DNA of 32,000 nucleotides from Candidatus Omnitrophota bacterium (GCA_963662715.1 OY759724.1:2700001-2732000), one strand, 5' to 3'. Shown: positions 13,934-24,991, counted from the first letter of the stretch. Translations and numbers: made by a program. The notes: a model not told the origin generated them from the sequence alone.

Positions 13934-13962
13934 TTGAATCTGAATATTTTTAGTGATATAAT
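13934..13962 (+). promoter_or_regulatory. Near-consensus sigma-70 promoter (TTGAAT-17 nt-TATAAT)
   Basis: TTGAAT at 13934-13939, a 17-nt spacer, and TATAAT at 13957-13962. It lies inside the TTG-initiated 5-prime extension of the track ORF, which argues for the ATG at 14009. Confidence 0.6.
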
Positions 13963-14008
13963 TCTCCGATTATTCATTTCATTTATTAATCCCGGAAACA
14001 AAACTATT

Positions 14009-15643
14009 ATGCGCAGAGCGTTAACAATTATTCTTTGCTTATGTTTACTGTCGTCCTTTTGGGCCTGTCCCTGTCCGGTTCATGCGGAGGATGATTATTC
14101 CCTGGTCTCTTATTATTTGTCCCGGGGCGAGAAGAAACTTGAGAAAGAGGACTTTCTTGCGGCGATGAATCAGTTCCTGATTGTCATGCTGCTGGAACCC
14201 TCCCAGAAAGCCGCCCGGGAATATCTCCAGCGTTCGGAAATCAGTGCCGTATTGCCCGCACAGTTTGATCAATATAAGCTGAAGAAATTCCTTGATCTTG
14301 CGGACCAGACCGATTTCCTGAACTCCCGTATTGCCTATGTCGATGAGTCTAACGAAAGACTGTTTGATTTTATTCACAAGAATAACCTTGTGACAGCGGA
14401 GAACCGGGATAATATCAACGCTTTAATGGCTCTTGTCAAACCCAAGAGAGATATTTCTTCGCTGACGGCTAAATTAGAACAGTTGCGGGATGCCGAAGAC
14501 GTCGAAACTCTGGGCCTGGCCATTAAACTGATGCTTGAACAGAAAGAACGGTCGATCCAAGTGTTGCAGGCAAGACAAAAAATCAATAAACAGCTGCGGA
14601 CATTGAAACAGGCGTTGCTGGAAAAGGAAATCTCCCGTCAGAAATCTGCTGAGGTTGAAACGGACGGTCAGCGCTTTAGCCGCATCCGGGAGCGTTTGGC
14701 GGAGAAGGAAATGCAGATAAAAACACAGGATGATCAGATGAAAGTTCTTCGGGAGGAGCTGACGGCTGTCCGTCTGCAATTTGCCGATATGCAGGCGAAA
14801 ATGAACACGACCGACCAGAAATTAGCCGTGTTAACGAAGGAACTTGCCGGGATGTCCCTGGATGTTTTGAGCAAAGAAAAACTCATTGAAAAAAGGAACG
14901 AGACGATAGAGGATCTGAACGCGCAATTAGAGGAAGCACAGGCACAAATGCAGCTTATTCAGGGCATTATTCAGGAGAAGGATGGCCAGATCACCGAATT
15001 TAAGAAACAATTGAATCAGATGAAAGAGCTCGTTGAGACCCGGGAGACATCCGTATTTAACCAGCCGGAAAGGATCCCGGAAGATATGTATCCTGAGGAC
15101 GACACGGTTGTTTTCACCGATGAAGCGCAGAATAAACTGGATAGCTTTGAACAGAAACTGGAAGCCCTGACTTTAAAATATCAGACATTAGAAGGCGTTG
15201 TCCAGGAAAAGGAGGCGCAGATCGATCAGCTGAACCAACTCGTGGGTGTTTTAGACGGGAAAATTATTTCCTACCGGCAGACAAACACAAAAAAGATCCG
15301 GGAACTGAACCAGGTCTACGGAATATTGGAAATTTATAAAGGCCGGTTGGAACAAACATGTGATCTTCTCAAGAAGAAAGAACAGTATATCATAGAAGTT
15401 GAACAGCAGCTGCGTGGCCTAGAAAGCCTTTTTGACAAACATTCATTCGATTTAACGGGTGAATCTCTCCCTGCCGAAGAAGAGACGGATGAAGAGGAAT
15501 ACGTTCCCCCCGCAGAGTCTCTGATTCAAGAACCTCCGGAGAAATCTCAAGAGTCTCCTGTCTTTGAAAGTACAAAGCAGCATATTCAGAGTTTGCTTAT
15601 GAATGCCAGGCCCCTGAATTACAGTATTATTCATTTTGAATAA
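14009..15643 (+). CDS. Secreted long coiled-coil protein with N-terminal TPR-like helix pair
   Basis: Signal peptide (MRRALTIILCLCLLSSFWACPCPVHA|EDD). About 400 aa follow of heptad-like, E/K/Q/L-rich sequence, then an acidic C-terminal tail. Confidence 0.7.
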   Translation: MRRALTIILCLCLLSSFWACPCPVHAEDDYSLVSYYLSRGEKKLEKEDFLAAMNQFLIVMLLEPSQKAAREYLQRSEISAVLPAQFDQYKLKKFLDLADQTDFLNSRIAYVDESNERLFDFIHKNNLVTAENRDNINALMALVKPKRDISSLTAKLEQLRDAEDVETLGLAIKLMLEQKERSIQVLQARQKINKQLRTLKQALLEKEISRQKSAEVETDGQRFSRIRERLAEKEMQIKTQDDQMKVLREELTAVRLQFADMQAKMNTTDQKLAVLTKELAGMSLDVLSKEKLIEKRNETIEDLNAQLEEAQAQMQLIQGIIQEKDGQITEFKKQLNQMKELVETRETSVFNQPERIPEDMYPEDDTVVFTDEAQNKLDSFEQKLEALTLKYQTLEGVVQEKEAQIDQLNQLVGVLDGKIISYRQTNTKKIRELNQVYGILEIYKGRLEQTCDLLKKKEQYIIEVEQQLRGLESLFDKHSFDLTGESLPAEEETDEEEYVPPAESLIQEPPEKSQESPVFESTKQHIQSLLMNARPLNYSIIHFE

Positions 15644-15676
15644 ATCATAACAATATATCTACGGATGGAGTTATTT

Positions 15677-17155
15677 ATGAAGAAAGCAGTAACCTGTTGT
15701 ATTCTTTCTGTATGCCTCTGTTGTGTCATCCCTTCTCAGGGGCATTGCAAGGACCATCGTGATTCCGTGGTTAAGATTTTTGTGACTTCAAACAGCATGG
15801 ATTATTACCGCCCCTGGCAGTCCCGGGGAAGCTATTCATCGACTGGGTCGGGATGCGTCCTCGAGGGGCAGCGCATTATTACCAATGCGCATGTTGTGGC
15901 GGATAATACGTTCATTCAAGTGCGGAAGGAATCAGACCCGACCAAATATACGGCAAAAGTGGAGGCTGTCGGTCATGACTGTGACTTGGCTATTCTTAAA
16001 GTCGACAATCCGGAATTTTTTGCCGGAATTACCCCTCTGCAATTCGGGGAGCTTCCCCAGTTGCAGGATACCGTCGTTGTCCTCGGTTTCCCGCAGGGAG
16101 GAGACAAGTTGTCCATTACGGAGGGTGTGATTTCGAGGATTGAAATAGTCCCTTATGTGCAGAGCTCCAAAAGACTCCTGGCCGTGCAGATCGATGCGGC
16201 CATAAATCCGGGGAATAGCGGCGGGCCGGTTATCAAGGATGGCAAGATTGTCGGCGTGGCCATGCAGGCGATGAGCCACAGCCAGAATATCGGGTATATG
16301 ATCCCGGTGCCGATTATTGAACACTTTCTTGAGGATTTGGAGGATAACGGTGAATACAACGGGTTCCCCAGCTTGGGCGTGGAATACAATAATACGGAAA
16401 GTCCCGCTTTAAGGGATTATTATCGCTTGGAAAAGCAGCATGGGGGCGTTTACATTACAAGGGTCTTGCCGTTCTCTTCCGCTGACGGGATTTTAGAGGA
16501 GGGAGACGTGGTCCTGGAAGTCAACGGCGTTCCTATCGGGATGGACGGGACTTTCGAGTTTCGCGAGAATGAACGCTTGAGTTTTTCTTACCTCGTGCAT
16601 AACCAGTATATTGGAAATTCTGTCCCTGTTAAAATTGCCAGAGACGGTAAAATCTTGGAAGAAACCGTTCGTTTCAAACAATTCGTCGGGATGATCCCTC
16701 ATCCGCATTATTATGAAAAACCCTCTTATTATATTTACGGAGGATTTGTCTTCACGGTTTTAAGTACGGATTTGTTGCGTTCCTGGGGAAAGCAATGGTG
16801 GGAAAAAGCTCCTTTGGTTTTTCTTAATCATTTTATGGGCAATGGCCGGTTGAATTTGGAGCGGAAAAAGGAGGTCGTTGTCCTTTTGCAGGTTCTGCCG
16901 GACGATATCAATATCGGTTATCATGATATGAGCAACGAGGTGATCGAGAAGGTCAACGGGAAAGAGTTTTCTTCTTTCAGGGAATTTATTGAGATAATCG
17001 CCAATACAAAACCACCTGTTACTTTTATCGAGACAGGCCTGCATCACCACATTATTATTAACAATAACGAAATAAATCAGATTACCCGGAACATTATAGA
17101 ACGTAACAATATCCCGGCGCAGTTTTCTGAAGATGTCGCTGGCTGGTTGCCGTGA
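15677..17155 (+). CDS. Deg/HtrA-type (S1C) serine protease with PDZ-like region
   Basis: Catalytic triad contexts are present: ITNAHVV (His), DCDLAILKV (Asp) and NPGNSGGPV (Ser). It has a signal peptide. GGAG lies 6 nt upstream of the ATG at 15677; the track start is 15665. Confidence 0.85.
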   Translation: MKKAVTCCILSVCLCCVIPSQGHCKDHRDSVVKIFVTSNSMDYYRPWQSRGSYSSTGSGCVLEGQRIITNAHVVADNTFIQVRKESDPTKYTAKVEAVGHDCDLAILKVDNPEFFAGITPLQFGELPQLQDTVVVLGFPQGGDKLSITEGVISRIEIVPYVQSSKRLLAVQIDAAINPGNSGGPVIKDGKIVGVAMQAMSHSQNIGYMIPVPIIEHFLEDLEDNGEYNGFPSLGVEYNNTESPALRDYYRLEKQHGGVYITRVLPFSSADGILEEGDVVLEVNGVPIGMDGTFEFRENERLSFSYLVHNQYIGNSVPVKIARDGKILEETVRFKQFVGMIPHPHYYEKPSYYIYGGFVFTVLSTDLLRSWGKQWWEKAPLVFLNHFMGNGRLNLERKKEVVVLLQVLPDDINIGYHDMSNEVIEKVNGKEFSSFREFIEIIANTKPPVTFIETGLHHHIIINNNEINQITRNIIERNNIPAQFSEDVAGWLP

Positions 17156-17376: not shown

Positions 17377-18762
17377 ATGAGGAAAATAAAATATGGCATT
17401 TTTTTGCAGATTTTGGCGGTTTTTTTAGTTCTTGTCTTTTGCTGGGATCAGAAATTATACGCTGCGGTGACGTTAAGCGTTTCTCCTGATGAGGGAGGGA
17501 ATAGCCTGCGGTTCGGTAGGGTCGATACGTTCTCCTCCGTAGACAAGGAAGTCCGGATCCGGGTGACCGGCAGTGAAGGCAATCAGTATCAGGTTTTTCA
17601 GAGAATGATGGCTCCTTTGGTCAATGAGAAAGGCGAATCTCTTGACCGTTCAGTGATATTGACCGGCGGGTTGTTAGGGTCGAATGCCCGGGGGAGTCTG
17701 TATATCCAGGACGTAGAACAGTTGGGTTTTTCGGATCAGCAGGTTTATTCCTCTGATCAGGCGGGCACGGCGGATTCATTTGTGCTTCTTTACCGGGTCG
17801 ATCCATCGGCGATTTCTGCAACAGGCTCTTTTCAGGGGCAGCTCCTTTATACTGTCCGGCCTATCGGAGGGAGCAGTTTTGACGAAGTTGTTCTTACTTT
17901 GACCCTGGATGCCGGAGGTGATTTGAAAATTGAGGCCCAGGGGCCGGACGGCTCCGACCGGGTAAGGTTGACGACGGCCGAACGACATATTCAGGACAGT
18001 GCTTTTTCTGTTTCCTTTTCCAGTAATATCGGGGGAAGCAAGATCCGTATCTATCAGGAGGTGGAATCGTTGCCCCGAGATGAACTTCTGCAGCCCGTAG
18101 AGGAAGGTTTGGTCCAGTATCTGGCGCTGGGAGGGGAAAACGGGGATATTCAGCAGGCCAGTTCTGCTGCCCTGCGTCCGGGAAGGGAGCTTTTGTATGA
18201 AAGTACGGCGACTCATGATACCGTTGATGTCTTTTTCAGCGTGAATGCAGATGTGGTGCAGGAATATAAGGCCGGGGATTATGAAGGCAGCATTCGTTAT
18301 ATTATCGAAAGCCGTAACGGGGAGCAGACCGTGGATTGCGTGCTGGCTTTAAATGTAGCGTCTGTCTTTGAACTGAATGTTGAATATCCTCAGGAAGGAA
18401 TGAGTTTCCGGGGGGCTTTGGAGTCCGATCCCCCGCAGGTACGGGAAGTGCAGGTAACAGTGAAATCCAACCTGGGCAAACCTTATGTTATTAACCAGCT
18501 GATTCAAGCCCCGTTAACCAATGAAAAAGGCGTTGAATTTTCCCATGAATTTTTTACTATGAAAGAGGAGGTTCTGGACGGGGACGGGCATATCCCGCAT
18601 GATGATTTTTCACCAGTTGGCATCGGTGAGGTTCCTTTGTACGTTTCTGATGACCAGGGGTCATCCGCAGAGTTGAAAATAAGCTATCGTATGAAGCCTT
18701 ACCATTTTATGCAAGCTGGAAGTTATAAACTGCAAGTTGTTTATTCTTTAGGCGCTATTTAA
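17377..18762 (+). CDS. Secreted protein of three tandem Ig-like/fimbrial-subunit-like modules
   Basis: It has a signal peptide. Three roughly 140-aa modules align with each other (e.g. NQYQVFQRMMAPLVNEKGESL vs KPYVINQLIQAPLTNEKGVEF). Each module ends in a G-x-Y/F-x-x-x-hydrophobic-alternating strand (TGSFQGQLLYTV, AGDYEGSIRYII, AGSYKLQVVYSL). Confidence 0.6.
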   Translation: MRKIKYGIFLQILAVFLVLVFCWDQKLYAAVTLSVSPDEGGNSLRFGRVDTFSSVDKEVRIRVTGSEGNQYQVFQRMMAPLVNEKGESLDRSVILTGGLLGSNARGSLYIQDVEQLGFSDQQVYSSDQAGTADSFVLLYRVDPSAISATGSFQGQLLYTVRPIGGSSFDEVVLTLTLDAGGDLKIEAQGPDGSDRVRLTTAERHIQDSAFSVSFSSNIGGSKIRIYQEVESLPRDELLQPVEEGLVQYLALGGENGDIQQASSAALRPGRELLYESTATHDTVDVFFSVNADVVQEYKAGDYEGSIRYIIESRNGEQTVDCVLALNVASVFELNVEYPQEGMSFRGALESDPPQVREVQVTVKSNLGKPYVINQLIQAPLTNEKGVEFSHEFFTMKEEVLDGDGHIPHDDFSPVGIGEVPLYVSDDQGSSAELKISYRMKPYHFMQAGSYKLQVVYSLGAI

Positions 18763-18789
18763 CTGTTTTCCTGAAAGGAGGGAAATGAA

Positions 18790-19434
18790 ATGCGAAAATT
18801 GATTTGGTTAGCGATTTTTCTTGCCGGAGCCATGATGTGTTTGAGCCCGGCCGTCTACGCGCAAACAAGTTCTGCGGCGTATGATATCTCTGTCACCATT
18901 GATAATGCCAGTACAGCCACGTTTGTGGTCTATCAGATAGATGCCGGTGTTTTCACGGCCTGGACAGACACGACGCTGTCATTCAATCCGGTCCTGACCG
19001 ATGTCAGAGAAGACCCGGCCGACCCGCCTGCCTATGCCTATTTAGGGGATGTGTATTATGCCATCGATGTTTTCCCGTACGGGGCAGGGGCCTTGAACGT
19101 AACACTGTCCTACAGCAATGCTGATCCGGCTTATGATCTGGGTGTGCATGCCATCGGAACTCCGGTTTCGAATGATGATAATGGAACACCAACGATTTAT
19201 ACTGACGATACTGAGACTCCGGTAGGGGTTAAAGCAATCCTGAACAGTATTGCTCAGACAATATATGCCTCCGATATCCTCGCTAACGGGGATTACTTGC
19301 GTTTTTACGTCGGTTTGGCCACGGGTGATCCCACTGAGAATGAACCGTCCGGCGCTGTCCCGTTTAATCCCGGTGATACCCCTGGTCATTATGAAGGCAC
19401 GTTAACAATGACAGTGGCAGCACCTGGGCCATAG
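18790..19434 (+). CDS. Secreted small subunit-like protein (candidate major fibre subunit)
   Basis: GGAGGG lies 7 nt upstream of the ATG. It has a signal peptide (AVYA|QTSS). The C-terminal strand PGHYEGTLTMTV is the same motif seen in the modules of the upstream gene. A strong hairpin follows. Confidence 0.6.
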   Translation: MRKLIWLAIFLAGAMMCLSPAVYAQTSSAAYDISVTIDNASTATFVVYQIDAGVFTAWTDTTLSFNPVLTDVREDPADPPAYAYLGDVYYAIDVFPYGAGALNVTLSYSNADPAYDLGVHAIGTPVSNDDNGTPTIYTDDTETPVGVKAILNSIAQTIYASDILANGDYLRFYVGLATGDPTENEPSGAVPFNPGDTPGHYEGTLTMTVAAPGP

Positions 19435-19456
19435 TCAGATCTTGAAAATTATTTTA

Positions 19457-19488
19457 TTATGCGGGCAAGGGATTCCTTGCCCGCATAA
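19457..19488 (+). promoter_or_regulatory. Perfect 14-bp intercistronic stem-loop without U-tract
   Basis: ttatgcgggcaagg-gatt-ccttgcccgcataa. It sits between the subunit-like gene and the chaperone-like gene. Confidence 0.6.
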
Positions 19489-19503
19489 TATGTCCTGTGA
19501 TAT

Positions 19504-20316
19504 ATGAAAAATTTTTATCTGGTATTACTATTTATTTGTATTTTTTATGGGGGGATCCCGTCTCCGGCGGAAGCCCAACTGGTCCTGCAGAAGAGTGTCG
19601 TCCAACACGATATCCCGAAGGGCGGGACTGTCGTTGATTCTTTTGATGTCACTAACAGCACCAACAAGCCTTTAGGGATAAAATTGTACTGGCAGGATTT
19701 TATTTATAAAGCTCCTTACGACAAGGGGGCAAAAGATTTTATGCCGGCGGGGACATCCGATTATTCCTGTGCGGATATGGTGACCTTCAGCCCCACAAAT
19801 CTGACGTTGCCGCCGTTCGGCAAGGAGAATATCAAATATTCTTTCAAAACCCCTGAAGATTTCCAGGGGGGCTGTGATGGCGTGCTCTTTTTTGAAATGG
19901 ACCGGGATGTCAGTAAGGCCAAAATGGGCATGAGTTTTGTGACGCGTATCGGGGCGCTGTTTTTCCTGGAATCAACGGATAAAGATAAAACGGCTGATGT
20001 GAAAGATTTTTCTTTCGATCAGGCCCGTCTGCAGGGGTCCTTTCATAATCAGGGGAATATTGTTCTTTTCCCCAAAGGCATTTATTATATTCTCAATGAG
20101 GACGGTCTGGTGGAGGACCGGGGCGAGGTGAACAAGCTTTATATCCCTCCCGGCGCCAGAGCCGACTTTCATTTTTCTGTGCCGGAAGCGTTGGATGCCG
20201 GGACCTATACGGTTGTCCTGACGTTCGATCTTGACGGCGGGGACAGTATTGTTAAAGAAGCTGATTTCACGAAAAGTCCTGCCGGGGCTTTTCGTCTTAT
20301 CGCCACAAGGGATTGA
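19504..20316 (+). CDS. Periplasmic PapD-like chaperone candidate (two Ig-like halves)
   Basis: It has a signal peptide. The segment order matches fimbrial chaperones: FDVTNSTNKPLGIKLYW, then LTLPPFGKENIKYSF, then MSFVTRIGALFFLE, then a second beta domain (FHNQGNIVLFPKG...LYIPPGARADFHFSV). This is a call from pattern only. Confidence 0.45.
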   Translation: MKNFYLVLLFICIFYGGIPSPAEAQLVLQKSVVQHDIPKGGTVVDSFDVTNSTNKPLGIKLYWQDFIYKAPYDKGAKDFMPAGTSDYSCADMVTFSPTNLTLPPFGKENIKYSFKTPEDFQGGCDGVLFFEMDRDVSKAKMGMSFVTRIGALFFLESTDKDKTADVKDFSFDQARLQGSFHNQGNIVLFPKGIYYILNEDGLVEDRGEVNKLYIPPGARADFHFSVPEALDAGTYTVVLTFDLDGGDSIVKEADFTKSPAGAFRLIATRD

Positions 20317-20479
20317 TGGTTTTTGCGTAAAATATATAAGATAAGGTGGTGAATGTATTTCTGTGTTTCGATTTCACGTCCAAGTTCCATGTTCATTGCC
20401 GTAATGCGCTGAGCGTGAAATTGATGCTTGCTCACAAAGTAGAATATTATGCACAGGAGCCGCAGAATAGCCGTCGGGT

Positions 20480-23215
20480 ATGACAAAACTTTCGTTGGGG
20501 ATTCTTATAGCCGCATTATTAGCTGTCTTTTTTTGCGGAACAAGCTATGCAGACTCGGAGACAGATTACCATTATTACATGGTCCTGGGGATCAGAGCTT
20601 TTGATAAAGGTTTCTATGATAAAGCGATTTGGTATTTTGAAGAAGCCCAGGCTGTAGACCCTACCAAAAGCACTCCTTTAAAATATATCAAGCTTATTAA
20701 ACGGTTCAAGGAAGGCCGTTTGTCTGTTGTTCAGCCGCCCGTTCGGCAGAAAAAAGGGGCGCCCACACCCGTTGCGCAGGAAAAGTCCGTCATTGAACAG
20801 CACCTTGCGACATCCCGAAAAATGATCGAAGCTAAAGACATGGTCCTGCAGCCTAAGGAGGCTGAAGTTCTTGTCCTGAATGATCAGTTCTGGTCTCTGC
20901 AGCCTAACCTGGAACTGGAAATTGAAACGAACAAGGTTTATGTTTTTCAGGGACAAAATGTCAAACGTTTTTTAAGTGTCAAAGAAGGCGTGCTGGATGT
21001 CGACCGTCTTGATAAGGACCGTATCAGCATATCAGCCAAGAACCGCGCATCGACATTTTTCCATGTCTGGGACGACCGCGGACGCTGGACTTTTCATGTC
21101 CAGGGGAAGCTCCCGGTTCTTTATCAGAATACCCGGGCTCAACAGTTTAAGGATACAGGGATGGAAGACAATCCTCCTTTAAAGATAGCTTATTCTAATA
21201 ACTGGGGGGCTATTTATCGGGGCAACAGTATTCCGGACATGGAACGTTCGAGTTTGACATTTACCCAGTGGGTCGGGACACACGGAAGAATCCCATACGG
21301 AAACTTTGATGCCTCCATGAATTTTTACAAATATGCAGAATCCACGGAAAGAATCGGTGAACGGATGGGCTTGGGGGACGGACGCATCGGCCCGTTTAAG
21401 GATTTTAATATACGCGGCTTTGATACCGAAGTCTATTTGTCGGATTTCTCCGTGCCGGGGCGAAGCTTCCGAGGGGTGCGGTTTGACAGTTACGCATTTA
21501 ACCGGAGATTGAATTATACATTATTTCAGGGGCAGGACAGGGCCCAGTTCCTTTTTATCAGCCCTTCCATTCTGGATGTCCGTAAGACCTATATTGAAGG
21601 CGCCAGTGCCACCTTGTTCCCGGACAGTGACCATAACTACACGATTAATTACGCCCGGGGCTACGGAGACTACCGGGATAACTTTTTGAAAAATAAAGCA
21701 TTTTCTGCTGAAACCGAACATAAGTTTTATAATTTAAAGGTCTCCGGGGAAGTGGGGTACGATGAAGACGTCTATAGCGAAGTTATACGGACAGAATTTA
21801 AAAGATATAATCACACTCTGAATGTGAATGTCCGCGATATTCATAAGGATTATGTTACCGTTGTCGGACGCCCTTCCGGCCGGGGGGAAGCCGGCGGGAA
21901 TATCCGTTATAATTTGAAACTGGAAAAGACGCGTTTTAATTCCAACCTCGACGTTTACCGGAACCGCTATCTGAACAACCCTGAACAGGACGGGGTGAAT
22001 TTTGACTGGAACGGCTCCATGAATCATACCTTGTCTTCCAGCTCTTCCTGGTCCGCGGCAGCATTTGTCTCCTATACGCCGCAGCTTGTTTCCCCGCATC
22101 AAAGCATGAGCCTGACAAACTATTATCATAAAAGGTTCCCTTTCCTCTACGGTCAGGCCATGTCGATGTCTTTGGGGCATTCTTTCCAGAGAAATCGTTA
22201 TGAAGAATCTCCCTTCGCGGAATTTGACCGCAACACGTTATCGGCGGGCTTTAGAATCCCGCTGTTCCCGGACGTGGGTTTTTTTGCCAATTATGATTAC
22301 TCTTTTGTCCATAATATCCAGGAAGACCTGCAGACTTATCCCCAGGTCTTCACAGCCGGCGTGGACTATAATAAAACCCTGTATAATCATGTCATCGGCC
22401 GGTGGAGCCTCCGTTATCGTAATGAGGAAAATGCCACCGGTCAGTTCAGTTTTTTATCGGGAGAAGATTCGATCCGGGGAACAGTGGGCCTCAGTTACCG
22501 CCCGAATCCCGGTTTTGAAATTTACCTGGACAGTAATGTCCGCAGTGTCTGGACAGAGGACCCGGATAACCCCGCTTTTAATGATGCCGATGTCCGAATC
22601 GGTTTTCGCTCCAGTTGGGACACGTTCTTCCATTGGAATCCCACCGGGATTTTCCAGGGACGGGTCTTTAATGATAGCAACGGCAATGCCCGGTACGACC
22701 CGGGGGAAGAGGGGCTGGCTGACATTGGGGTGAAAGTCGGAGATAAGACCGTTAGGACCAACAGCCGGGGAGAGTATTTTGCCACGGTCAGGGCGAAAAA
22801 AGTGCGTGTCGCTTTGGATCTGGGATCTTTACCCATGGGATACATCAATTCAGACGGTTTTATGCGGGATATTGTCGTGGAACATAGACAGGTTAATGCG
22901 GTTGACTTTGGCCTGACCAGCCAGGCCGGGATTTACGGTGTCGTTTATATCGACCGGAACCTGACCGGAACGCTGGATCAGGGAGATGAGTTTATCGCAA
23001 GGGCGAAGATTATCCTTGATGGACAGCATGTCGCGTACAGTGATTTTGAAGGGACATACAGCTTTGATAACATTAAACCCGGTCAACATGTCATCTCGAT
23101 CGATATCAATTCTCTTCCGCTCCAATATATCCCGCTTATCAAGCTCAACAATGAGATTGAAGTCGGGGAAGGGATCACGTATGTTTTTAATATCCCGTTA
23201 AAGGAAGGAAAATAA
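20480..23215 (+). CDS. Large outer-membrane protein: signal peptide, TPR-like helices, CpaC-type pilus N-domain, beta-barrel, two SdrD-B/carboxypeptidase-regulatory-like domains
   Basis: Signal peptide ending SYA|DSE. The segment VKRFLSVKEGVLDVDRLDKDRISISAKNRASTFFHVWDDRGRWTFHVQ matches the pilus-formation N-terminal domain pattern. About 480 aa follow of aromatic-rich alternating strands (GFFANYDYSF, GRWSLRYRNEE, ADVRIGFRSSWDTFF). The C-terminus has GRVFNDSNGNARYDPGEEGLADIGVKV and GVVYIDRNLTGTLDQGDEF...SDFEGTYSFDNIKPGQHVISI. Confidence 0.6.
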   Translation: MTKLSLGILIAALLAVFFCGTSYADSETDYHYYMVLGIRAFDKGFYDKAIWYFEEAQAVDPTKSTPLKYIKLIKRFKEGRLSVVQPPVRQKKGAPTPVAQEKSVIEQHLATSRKMIEAKDMVLQPKEAEVLVLNDQFWSLQPNLELEIETNKVYVFQGQNVKRFLSVKEGVLDVDRLDKDRISISAKNRASTFFHVWDDRGRWTFHVQGKLPVLYQNTRAQQFKDTGMEDNPPLKIAYSNNWGAIYRGNSIPDMERSSLTFTQWVGTHGRIPYGNFDASMNFYKYAESTERIGERMGLGDGRIGPFKDFNIRGFDTEVYLSDFSVPGRSFRGVRFDSYAFNRRLNYTLFQGQDRAQFLFISPSILDVRKTYIEGASATLFPDSDHNYTINYARGYGDYRDNFLKNKAFSAETEHKFYNLKVSGEVGYDEDVYSEVIRTEFKRYNHTLNVNVRDIHKDYVTVVGRPSGRGEAGGNIRYNLKLEKTRFNSNLDVYRNRYLNNPEQDGVNFDWNGSMNHTLSSSSSWSAAAFVSYTPQLVSPHQSMSLTNYYHKRFPFLYGQAMSMSLGHSFQRNRYEESPFAEFDRNTLSAGFRIPLFPDVGFFANYDYSFVHNIQEDLQTYPQVFTAGVDYNKTLYNHVIGRWSLRYRNEENATGQFSFLSGEDSIRGTVGLSYRPNPGFEIYLDSNVRSVWTEDPDNPAFNDADVRIGFRSSWDTFFHWNPTGIFQGRVFNDSNGNARYDPGEEGLADIGVKVGDKTVRTNSRGEYFATVRAKKVRVALDLGSLPMGYINSDGFMRDIVVEHRQVNAVDFGLTSQAGIYGVVYIDRNLTGTLDQGDEFIARAKIILDGQHVAYSDFEGTYSFDNIKPGQHVISIDINSLPLQYIPLIKLNNEIEVGEGITYVFNIPLKEGK

Positions 23216-23377: not shown

Positions 23378-23638
23378 TTATTTGGCGACGATGGTTTTTC
23401 GAATAACCGTGTGCCCGTCTTCCTGTATTTCTTCCGTAAAGACATTGAATTGAGCTTTTATCGGCGCGTTATCAACAGTTTCTTCAGACATGTTTTCCAT
23501 CGGGGCATTAATACCGGGTACGGCCGGTATATAAACGACGATCCTGAAATCCTGGGAGGCCGTCGCCCCGTAAATATCCTGGCACAGGGATGCGAGGATT
23601 ATCGCTGTGACCATGCCTAAAAAGTATATATGTTTCAT
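23378..23638 (-). CDS. Small secreted protein, unknown function (riboswitch-controlled)
   Basis: 86 aa with a signal peptide (MKHIYFLGMVTAIILASLCQDIYG). GGGAG lies 5 nt upstream of the ATG. It sits directly downstream of the GEMM-I aptamer and its terminator. Confidence 0.7.
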   Translation of the reverse strand: MKHIYFLGMVTAIILASLCQDIYGATASQDFRIVVYIPAVPGINAPMENMSEETVDNAPIKAQFNVFTEEIQEDGHTVIRKTIVAK

Positions 23639-23655: not shown

Positions 23656-23688
23656 AAAGAAAAAGCCCTTCGAAAGATTCGAAGGGCT
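23656..23688 (-). terminator. Intrinsic terminator hairpin (riboswitch expression platform)
   Basis: On the minus strand: agcccttcgaa-tct-ttcgaagggct, a perfect 11-bp stem, followed by ttttcttt. It ends about 17 nt before the start codon at 23638. Confidence 0.75.
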
Positions 23689-23704
23689 CATTATTTACGA
23701 AACC

Positions 23705-23812: not shown

Positions 23813-24040
23813 CAATAAAAGTATAACATATAAGGAGTTGCCCCTGCCAGTAAGCCTCTTTTTTGGGAAAGCGTTTTTTCGCCGCATAGAAAAGGATAAA
23901 AGTGGCAAACGGCGGGGAATTCCGACTTTCCTGAATGCTTGCGAGGCCGTGGGCGAGATTTTTTGAAACTTTTCTTTCCAAAATAAAAGGCGCGATGTAT
24001 GATGGTAAATCACGATAAGCAGGAAAGAGAGGCTGTCTCC

Positions 24041-24991
24041 ATGAATAACATTGATCAAAAATATACTGCCGCCCCAAGAGGGATTCCTAAACTTGTGGGG
24101 ATCGGCATTTGTATGGGCGCGGCCAATATTATCCCCGGAGTATCGGGGGGAACCATCGCCTTTATCTTTGGAATATATGCGGACCTGATCAGGGCTATTA
24201 AGCTTTTTGATTTTGAAGTGTTGAAAATGGCTTGCCGGCGACAATGGAAAAAGTTGTTGGATTATTTTCCCTGGAGATTCCTGGCGGCGATTCTCTCCGG
24301 AGTGGTCCTGGCGATATTTTCTTTTGCCAAATTGATGAGCTGGCTGCTGCAGTATCAGCCGGTCCCGACTTTCGCCTTTTTCTTCGGCCTGATTCTGGCC
24401 ACCGCTCCGGTTATCGGCCGGACGATTAAACAATGGAATCCGTCTGTTGTGGCCCTGGGCATCATTTCAACCATCGGTATGTATTTTTTTGTCGGCATGG
24501 TTCCGGTGAACACTCCGGATTCCTTGTGGTTCCTTTTCCTCTGCGGGGCCATTGCGGTCAGCACCATGATTTTACCCGGGATATCGGGATCTTTTGTCTT
24601 GGTGATCCTGGGGAAATATCAATATATCATAGACTGCATTTCACACAGAGATATTGTCCCGTTGGGGGTTGTGGCTTTGGGCTGTGCCGTGGGAATACTC
24701 ATTTTTATCCGTATCCTGAACTGGCTGCTGAACCGTTACCATGATCAGACATTGGTCGTCCTGGCGGGCATGGTTTTGGGGTCTCTGCGTAAGGTGTGGC
24801 CCTGGAAGGAAACGCTTAAAGTCACGGTATCCAGTAAGGGTAAAATCATCCCCATTGAGCAAATCAACCAGCTCCCCGCTGAATTTTCTCCGGAGGTCGT
24901 ACTCGCTGTTATTCTTTTCGTGCTGGGCCTGCTCCTCGCCTGGAACCTGGGCGGGCGTTCGGAATCTCAGAATCTGCAGACAGAGGAGTAA
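24041..24991 (+). CDS. DUF368-family polytopic membrane protein (family recently linked to undecaprenyl-phosphate recycling)
   Basis: Duplicated signature IIPGVSGGTIAFIFGIY and ILPGISGSFVLVILGKY, with many TM helices. The track start is 23999; the ATG at 24041 has AGAGAGG upstream. Confidence 0.75.
   Translation: MNNIDQKYTAAPRGIPKLVGIGICMGAANIIPGVSGGTIAFIFGIYADLIRAIKLFDFEVLKMACRRQWKKLLDYFPWRFLAAILSGVVLAIFSFAKLMSWLLQYQPVPTFAFFFGLILATAPVIGRTIKQWNPSVVALGIISTIGMYFFVGMVPVNTPDSLWFLFLCGAIAVSTMILPGISGSFVLVILGKYQYIIDCISHRDIVPLGVVALGCAVGILIFIRILNWLLNRYHDQTLVVLAGMVLGSLRKVWPWKETLKVTVSSKGKIIPIEQINQLPAEFSPEVVLAVILFVLGLLLAWNLGGRSESQNLQTEE

Follow-up and report, generated by a model that had tools for sequence, protein, structure and literature searches.

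The 32,000-nucleotide stretch analyzed here, called the window, comes from Candidatus Omnitrophota bacterium (GCA_963662715.1 OY759724.1:2700001-2732000). It contains a cluster of five genes, designated A to E, that probably encodes a chaperone-usher-like surface fiber assembled by donor-strand complementation, judging from evidence that is computational throughout. Genes A, B, C, and D are co-directional and separated by spacers of 27, 69, and 163 nt (A-B, B-C, and C-D, respectively), an arrangement described in an earlier sequence-only reading of the window and confirmed by the positions of the open reading frames (ORFs). As that reading also held, each of the four proteins begins with a signal peptide, recognized by eye from its basic n-region, its hydrophobic core, and a site of the A-x-A type. 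Gene E and a hairpin between B and C were missed at that stage. The features of the cluster are collected in Table 1.

Table 1. Genes, domains, strands, and hairpin of the cluster, in window coordinates
Feature	Position	Strand	Residues	Description
Gene A	17377-18762	+		ORF, 461 aa
Extra strand after A module 1	17881-17913	+	169-179	DEVVLTLTLDA; alternating hydrophobic residues conserved in the family
Extra strand after A module 2	18331-18363	+	319-329	VDCVLALNVAS; family pattern F-x-I-x-L-x-C/I-x-I-x-P
A module 3	18364-18759	+	330-461	Ends 14 residues after the Gly of G-S-Y
Gene B	18790-19434	+		ORF, 214 aa
B candidate N-terminal donor strand	18880-18903	+	31-38	YDISVTID; family pattern F-x-V/I-S-A-x-V/I-P
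B C-terminal strand motif	19384-19416	+		GHYEGTLTMTV
Hairpin between B and C	19455-19490	+		16-bp stem, G+C-rich
Gene C	19504-20316	+		ORF, 270 aa
C candidate G1 donor strand	19927-19971	+	142-156	G-M-S-F-V-T-R-I-G-A-L-F-F-L-E
Gene D	20480-23215	+		ORF, 911 aa
D TPR-like helical pair	20552-20710	+	25-77	Family profile matches consensus TPR proteins; helices in model
D periplasmic β-domain	20864-21109	+	129-210	PF13629 type ("pilus formation protein N-terminal region")
D β-barrel	21182-22621	+	235-714	About 26 strands, no inserted plug domain (model)
D two C-terminal β-sandwiches	22643-23206	+	722-909 (722-814, 817-909)	SdrD_B / CarboxypepD_reg type
Gene E	23378-23638	-		86 aa, convergent to D

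Among GTDB genomes taken at one per species, a scan with the C family yielded 79 loci, nearly all from Omnitrophota. The presence of the other genes in related loci was assessed by tblastn and ORF mapping. Homologs of C and D are found almost entirely in metagenome-assembled genomes of this phylum. By tblastn, A is present in 74 of 82 loci and D in 79 of 82. The conservation of the gene neighborhood, left by the sequence-only reading as a point to check, is borne out: A, B, C, and D occur together in 60 of the 61 loci with room for the whole cluster. In the same set, 60 loci have a gene of the B type between A and C, 58 keep the order A-B(n)-C-D, and six contain two B paralogs. The proteins are typically about 455-470 (A), 205-225 (B), 267 (C), and 900-1100 (D) residues long. 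The genes flanking the cluster vary from locus to locus, so the cluster is a self-contained unit. Full clusters are also present on two contigs labeled Candidatus Elulimicrobium, of the Patescibacteria group (L025), and Methanosarcinales archaeon (L049). These contigs are probably mis-binned or mislabeled, because an outer-membrane barrel system is implausible in either group.

A, B, and C have no match above threshold in Pfam or NCBIfam, and the only match of D above threshold is SdrD_B. Searches of both databases with the whole proteins and with family members one by one return no clean match to a characterized family, in agreement with the sequence-only reading.

The fold of C is predicted to be that of a PapD-type chaperone, as had been proposed. 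An AlphaFold2 model, computed from a 20-sequence alignment, contains two β-sandwich domains and has a predicted local distance difference test score (pLDDT) of 89.7. Foldseek comparison of the model with the PDB retrieves CfaA, Caf1M, EcpB, DraB, CupB2, FimC, and PapD with E values of 1e-11 to 1e-8. Chaperones of chaperone-usher systems constitute the majority of the matches, and CfaA is the best geometric match with a target TM score of 0.66. Enterococcal WxLIP proteins are also retrieved and have the best E values. C carries a signal peptide and no C-terminal hydrophobic helix, and is predicted to be soluble and periplasmic.

At the sequence level, a profile of the C family has one match among PDB sequences, EcpB, with an E value of 0.015 across the F1-G1 region. 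An hhalign comparison with eight E. coli chaperones gives a probability of 66%, a pairwise E value of 5.5e-5, and 206 collinear columns. Pfam echoes among the 20 C members are weak and consist of WxLIP_PGBD (12 members, best E value 6.9e-6) and fn3_5 (16 members). More distant relatives of C reach 20-24 bits with WxLIP-type Pfam models, whose cutoffs are 27-29 bits.

Two elements of C can be placed on known chaperones. The kink proline of strand D1 (Pro59 in CsuC and Pro60 in EcpB) is the only invariant residue of the chaperone superfamily (PMC4654587). The invariant Pro97 of C aligns with Pro75 of the EcpB chain, which is mature Pro60, and lies between half-strands 93-96 and 99-102 in the model. 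In the candidate G1 strand, positions 143, 145, 149, and 152-155 are 95-100% hydrophobic. The donor residues Ala111, Ala113, Ala115, and Ile117 of EcpB (numbering after PMC4654587) align with positions 143, 145, 147, and 149 of C, and the strand end R-I-G is common to both proteins. The loop preceding G1 (residues 132-141) is variable, and model confidence is low over residues 131-150. Also invariant are R148 of the G1 strand and two residues of domain 2, R206 and Y213. A WxLIP protein has itself been predicted to complete the incomplete β-sandwich of a partner with a loop-derived strand (PMC10599100), and both structural neighbors of C therefore point to strand donation. From the predicted fold, we propose that C is a periplasmic chaperone.

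Protein A is composed of three modules, as the sequence-only reading had stated, and these are mutually homologous repeats with hhalign probabilities of 99.1, 98.9, and 95.6%. The protein has no sequence match in Pfam, NCBIfam, or the PDB, and profile searches of its modules against PDB sequences return only non-significant echoes of antibody V domains. The motif residues G150 and G154 in module 1, G300, Y302, and G304 in module 2, and G448 in module 3 are at least 90% conserved among 64 A proteins.

The sequence-only reading had taken a shared G-x-Y/F motif as the last β-strand of every A module, of B, and of C. All five quoted motifs are found, and they are kept across the A and B families, hence not by chance. 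The motif does form the last strand in A module 3 and in B. In A modules 1 and 2, it is followed by one more strand, and in C by two more. The alignment of module 1 with module 2 takes in the strand after G-x-Y, for which module 3 has no counterpart. These strands are proposed from the sequence to close modules 1 and 2 in cis. Because its two homologs in the same protein carry one extra strand, module 3 is proposed to have an incomplete fold with an open acceptor groove.

In Gly spacing, the end of A resembles that of pilins. Counted from the C-terminus, the last G-x-Y motif starts at exactly residue 14 in 61 of 67 A proteins, and 14 of 15 E. coli K-12 pilins have their Gly at the same distance. 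A weak hhalign alignment of module 3 with E. coli pilins (34%) has the C-termini in register. At the other end, A begins directly with the first strand of module 1, that is, without an N-terminal donor strand at the sequence level. Most simply, A can be read as three pilins fused head to tail, with the donor strands of modules 2 and 3 complementing the preceding module in cis. The strand polarity would be the same as in a pilus, and the last groove would be left for B. A is proposed to be a tip fibrillum or adhesin.

Protein B is proposed to be the major polymerizing pilin. It has a conserved strand at each end. The candidate N-terminal donor strand is located 6-8 residues past the signal-peptide site, and its alternating positions are 99-100% hydrophobic in 68 B proteins. 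It is similar to the strand closing A module 2. In the C-terminal motif, G199, Y201, and G203 are at least 90% conserved among 65 B proteins. In 53 of 68 B proteins, the Gly of this motif falls exactly at position -14 relative to the C-terminus; in the window protein it falls at -16. The 65-member B family has no Pfam or PDB match, and a word-indexed homolog search with B returned six close matches only, none with a name.

D was modeled with AlphaFold2 from 49 sequences (pLDDT 84.4), and its strands were assigned with DSSP. In the model, the TPR-like pair is followed by a disordered linker, the periplasmic β-domain, a helix at residues 214-226, a large barrel, and two β-sandwiches. PF13629 is matched weakly by the β-domain of the window protein (E 0.11) and is carried by many homologs; W197 and R202 of D are invariant. 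The Pfam match of D to TPR is likewise weak. Pfam SdrD_B matches are borderline and cover two stretches, and a D-family profile finds only SdrD and TPR among PDB sequences.

The order of N-domain, large barrel, and two β-sandwiches in the model is the same as in ushers. When the D model is compared with the PDB in Foldseek, the top 16 matches are all FimD or PapC, with E values of 9e-22 to 5e-9 over 540-850 aligned columns, and non-usher barrels begin at 2.5e-8. The sequence-only reading held that D resembles neither an usher nor a secretin. This is correct for the sequence, which has no PF00577 match or hhalign similarity to ushers, and does not stand for the predicted fold and architecture. 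Judging from the model, D is more aptly described as an usher-like translocon, divergent and lacking a plug. It is not filed as a member of PF00577, because sequence similarity and the plug are missing and the strand count is not the canonical 24.

E is a small protein of about 55-60 residues in its mature form. Its signal peptide is followed by a strand (FRIVVYIP) of the type found at the N-terminus of B, then by a linker of polar residues, and finally by a C-terminal segment that is conserved. E is detected after D by tblastn in at least 30 loci, and 47 of 71 loci have a convergent ORF bearing its motif, in many cases at a distance of 1-25 nt from the D stop codon. The strand pattern of E, F/Y-x-I/V/L-S-V-T-I-P-A-x-x-G-x-N, matches the N-terminal strand of B position by position. 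Profile searches of Pfam and of PDB sequences reveal no relative of E. We tentatively suggest, with the balance of opinion somewhat against it, that E caps the last B. It would end growth because it supplies a donor strand and offers no groove; it may perhaps also anchor the fiber.

The hairpin between B and C recurs at the same place in other loci. A hairpin with a folding free energy of -18 kcal/mol or lower is found in the B-C spacer of 25 of 56 loci, in the A-B spacer of one of 62, and in the C-D spacer of one of 69. The B-C hairpin sequences vary among loci, and several have a terminal T-run. A hairpin also follows the major-subunit gene papA. The B-C hairpin is proposed to be an attenuator or mRNA-stabilizing element that raises the output of A and B over that of C and D.

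Related loci extend beyond this cluster. An exhaustive search with the C-family profile finds 183 representatives at E values up to 1e-30, 1,743 up to 1e-10, and 6,998 up to 1e-3. This C-like superfamily includes forms with three to five repeated immunoglobulin (Ig)-like domains, such as P0188 (568 aa), and its Pfam echoes are limited to weak WxLIP_PGBD/HBD matches. A metagenome scan with a five-sequence C alignment identified distant loci in which C-like proteins of 28-31% identity are encoded directly upstream of D-like barrels. The barrels carry two or three SdrD_B domains, and PF13629 exceeds its cutoff in three of four (L089, L091, and L093). None of the D-like proteins encoded in L089, L090, and L091 has the TPR pair. 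One of the loci, L093, is a remote A-B-C-D cluster.

Small secreted proteins encoded beside the distant C and D genes end in G-x-Y-x-x-x-h-x-h-T-h-x-E. Four tandem genes of this kind in L090 (7825-13714) and more than ten in L091 (2300-13854) lie upstream of a three-domain C-like protein and a TPR-less D-like barrel. L089 contains one, on the opposite strand. These stand-alone subunits align end to end with A module 3 (hhalign 98.1%, E 1.3e-13) and also match module 1 (97.0%). Their N-terminal strand aligns exactly at the position of the inter-module strand of A, including the strand after module 2. The subunit of L089 falls just short of the PF00419 (Fimbrial) threshold, with an E value of 2e-4 and 22.1 bits against a cutoff of 25.6 bits; weak DUF4402 and Fimbrial matches are obtained for a small subunit of a related locus. 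Compared with E. coli pilins by hhalign, the small subunits reach 83.8%, over the N-terminal half only. In L090, the barrel gene is followed by a gene for a 265-aa OMP_b-brl protein.

These components can be arranged in a scheme of fiber assembly. A, B, C, D, and E would enter the periplasm via Sec. C would bind A and B after their export, its long G1 strand (residues 143-155) occupying the groove where their last strand is missing. D would take up the chaperone-subunit complexes and pass the growing fiber through its lumen. A would enter D first and form the tip, with modules 1 and 2 closed in cis and the groove of module 3 open; adhesion is the proposed function of the fiber. B would then polymerize, the N-terminal strand of each copy (F-x-V-S-A-x-V-P) filling the groove of the preceding subunit, and the strand of E would cap the last B, end growth, and perhaps anchor the fiber. 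The B-C hairpin would keep the output of C and D below that of A and B.

Several observations weigh against this scheme. For C, neither PF00345 nor PF02753 (PapD_N/C) matches the protein or any of 20 family members at E values up to 1, and its sequence is nearer to the WxLIP/DUF916 lineage than to the Pfam PapD families. The C-terminal carboxylate of the subunit is anchored by R8 and K112 in classical chaperones, and by Arg89 plus an Arg/Tyr pair of domain 2 in non-classical (archaic and alternative) ones. Arg89 is a hallmark of the non-classical chaperones (PMC4654587); the equivalent position in C is the invariant Gly126. Tandem Ig-like domains are common, and RbmA and CEP192 are also among the Foldseek matches of C. 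The penultimate Tyr of classical pilins is absent in A and B. B shows no significant hhalign similarity to the A modules, the small subunits, or E. coli pilins; only its C-terminal strand or N-terminus aligned in these comparisons, and an incomplete fold is only hypothesized for it. Permissive hhalign settings produced a collinear alignment of B at 2-6%, which was discarded as evidence.

The remaining adverse points concern D. It has no Pfam match to PF00577 and reaches 0.8% in hhalign against six E. coli ushers. Given this lack of signal, homology between D and the ushers cannot be claimed from sequence. The plug domain of ushers is inserted between barrel strands 6 and 7. No loop of the predicted D barrel could accommodate such a domain; even the longest, 353-370, is short, and it is modeled with low confidence. 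The strand count of the barrel is about 26, compared with 24 in ushers. Barrel-only usher structures match D with an E value of 1e-10 against 2.5e-8 for other barrels. This margin is modest, and much of the usher signal of D therefore derives from the combination of the barrel and two sandwiches.

The same proteins might instead form a surface-display or holdfast system that makes no polymer. C would be a WxLIP-like permanent partner that completes A and B and docks them at the cell surface, and D would be a translocon or anchor only. Such an arrangement seems unlikely to us, although it draws support from the Pfam echoes of C, which are confined to WxLIP_PGBD (12/20) and fn3_5, from the best Foldseek E values of WxLIP proteins, and from the proposal that WxLIP stabilizes its partner by strand insertion and not by hand-over (PMC10599100). 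However, C has no C-terminal membrane helix of the kind present in WxLIP, and Pfam searches detect no WxL domain in A or B. A merely docked protein would have no need of the conserved N-terminal strand of B. Subunits encoded in tandem in the distant loci, from 4 to more than 10 per locus, each combine an N-terminal strand with an incomplete module, the signature of polymerizing pilins. In addition, A resembles a covalently fused mini-polymer, and E, which is nearly a strand only, fits a polymer cap.

Two other readings assign D to a different process. D could be an LptD- or MtrB-like large porin or envelope-biogenesis barrel that is linked by chance to periplasmic proteins of a generic Ig-like kind. 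The predicted strand count of D, about 26, is like that of LptD and MtrB (26 strands each), MtrB is among the Foldseek matches (target TM 0.41), and D has no sequence link to ushers. We regard chance linkage as very improbable, since five genes are co-conserved in a fixed order in many species with differing neighbors, and subunits, a C-like protein, and a D-like barrel are again encoded together at 28-31% identity. Genes for cytochromes or Lpt partners are absent from the vicinity, and ushers score 9e-22 in Foldseek compared with 5e-7 for MtrB. The sequence-only reading had considered a TPR-porin exopolysaccharide exporter as an alternative. D would then be of the PgaA/BcsC/AlgK-AlgE type, with A, B, and C as accessory periplasmic proteins, and the TPR-like pair at the start of D speaks for this reading. 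TPR-porin exporters of this type end in a barrel of 16-18 strands. D has one TPR pair and not a long array, followed by a barrel of about 26 strands and then two domains. The TPR pair is also missing in the D-like proteins of L089, L090, and L091, and AlgE ranks far below ushers in Foldseek. The absence of glycosyltransferase genes, noted before, extends within the window to synthase and polysaccharide-modifying genes. The single TPR pair, the barrel with two domains, and the lack of linked enzymes effectively refute the exporter, to which we attach hardly any probability.

The chaperone-usher-like fiber is thus the reading we favor. The sequence-only reading had suggested an undescribed variant of donor-strand fiber assembly with a non-usher outer-membrane component. 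The co-conserved genes, the PapD-type fold of C, the missing closing strand of A module 3, and the absence of a curated family uphold the first part, and the usher-like prediction for D goes against the second.

Among known systems, the alternative (alpha) pathway, represented by CFA/I (CfaA-CfaB-CfaC-CfaE) and Ecp (EcpA-E), includes CfaA, the best geometric match of C, and EcpB, the only PDB sequence match of the C family. The operon follows the same logic, with subunits accompanied by a chaperone, an assembly protein of the outer membrane, and a tip protein of several domains, and C and EcpB share the R-I-G motif and the D1 proline. The differences are the lack of sequence membership at the Pfam level, Gly in place of Arg89 in C, and a plug-less D of about 26 strands. 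In D, PF13629-type and SdrD_B-type domains take the place of the N- and C-terminal domains of the alternative-pathway usher.

No other chaperone-usher class is as widespread as the archaic (sigma) pathway, whose range extends beyond Proteobacteria (PMC4654587). Its members, including Csu (CsuA/B-A-B-C-D-E), CupE, and spore coat protein U, have small subunits with an N-terminal donor strand, as is proposed for B. Its chaperone and usher differ from C and D in the same respects as those of the alternative pathway. The G-x-Y-x-x-T-h-T-h ending resembles that of spore coat protein U subunits. PF05229 has no match in any subunit, whether A, B family members, or distant small subunits. To our knowledge, the archaic pathway has not been reported in Omnitrophota or the Planctomycetes-Verrucomicrobia-Chlamydiae (PVC) group.

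Classical pili (Fim and Pap) provide the best structural matches to D in their ushers and share the Gly at -14 with the subunits described here. They also have a multi-domain tip without a donor strand, followed by polymerizing pilins. In contrast to classical pili, the subunits have no penultimate Tyr, C falls outside PF00345/PF02753, and D falls outside PF00577 and is plug-less. Termination would be carried out by the strand-only E and not by a full pilin like PapH or FimI.

Two systems outside the usher pathways are also related. The WxLIP (DUF916-DUF3324)/WxL clusters of Firmicutes provide the best Foldseek E values and the only recurrent Pfam echo for C; the matches to PF06030/PF11797 are weak, with none shown to reach the Pfam cutoff. 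WxLIP, a protein of single-membrane bacteria, has a C-terminal membrane helix as its anchor and peptidoglycan and WxL domains as its ligands, whereas C is predicted to be soluble and is encoded beside an outer-membrane barrel and pilin-like subunits. The Pam pili of Candidate Phyla Radiation (CPR) bacteria are donor-strand-exchange pili outside Proteobacteria with PapD/FimC-like chaperones, and their terminator PamR is proposed to insert an N-terminal strand into the last pilin (bioRxiv 10.64898/2026.03.03.709456). By description, they resemble the present system in having a tip pilin without a donor strand, and PamR is conceptually like E. They differ in their membrane-anchored chaperones, in the lack of an outer membrane and usher, and in their two-domain pilins, which are reported to be exclusive to CPR.

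The chaperone-usher pili known so far belong to Proteobacteria, except that archaic forms have been recorded in Cyanobacteria and Deinococcus-Thermus as well (PMC4654587). Two large surveys of Omnitrophota genomes mention only type IVa, Tad, and type II secretion systems (PMC10066038), and no paper in the literature searched ties Omnitrophota or Omnitrophica to ushers, fimbriae, or PapD. The type of mechanism is known. Undescribed in that literature are its component families, an usher-like barrel that lacks a plug, a tip protein of fused modules, the strand-only E, and the phylum.

The cluster could be the founding example of a fourth, phylogenetically broad chaperone-usher-type class beside the classical, alternative, and archaic classes, a possibility that we hold open at slightly under even chances. 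Four features would set such a class apart. Its usher-like barrel would have about 26 strands, no plug, a PF13629 domain at the N-terminus, and SdrD_B domains at the C-terminus. Its chaperone would be of the WxLIP/DUF916 lineage and would connect strand-donating chaperones of double-membrane bacteria to their counterparts in Firmicutes and CPR. Its tip would be formed by covalent fusion of self-complemented pilins, and its terminator would consist only of a donor strand and a tail. The roughly 1,700 C-like representatives at E values up to 1e-10, together with the distant tandem-pilin loci, suggest that the class reaches well beyond Omnitrophota.

If the assignment is correct, donor-strand assembly would extend to the PVC group. 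Because the locus is conserved across Omnitrophota, it is a candidate attachment organelle for these uncultured, often ultra-small, and possibly host-dependent bacteria. The system raises the question of whether PapD and WxLIP chaperones descend from one strand-donating ancestor. Further mechanistic questions are how a wide usher-like barrel is gated without a plug and whether a peptide-like, strand-only protein can terminate a pilus. Profile models of the five families would annotate thousands of proteins now labeled hypothetical.

The surroundings of the cluster contain three further features. Just upstream of A, at positions 13934-17155, are genes for two proteins, a 569-aa coiled-coil protein that is secreted and a 496-aa, PDZ-containing protease of the HtrA/DegP type. 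This pair is found upstream of the cluster in 8-9 of 82 loci, distant ones included, with 55-73% identity between the HtrA proteins. DegP degrades off-pathway pilins in E. coli, and the pair may be a periplasmic quality-control partner. Downstream, a DUF368/VCA0040-like gene (23999-24991), which Pfam describes as undecaprenyl-phosphate translocase-like, lies beside the cluster in one other locus only (L008) and is for this reason taken as probably unrelated to the system. A palindromic hairpin with an 11-12-bp stem is located at 23663-23689, about 25 nt upstream of the E start codon, and is terminator-like on both strands.

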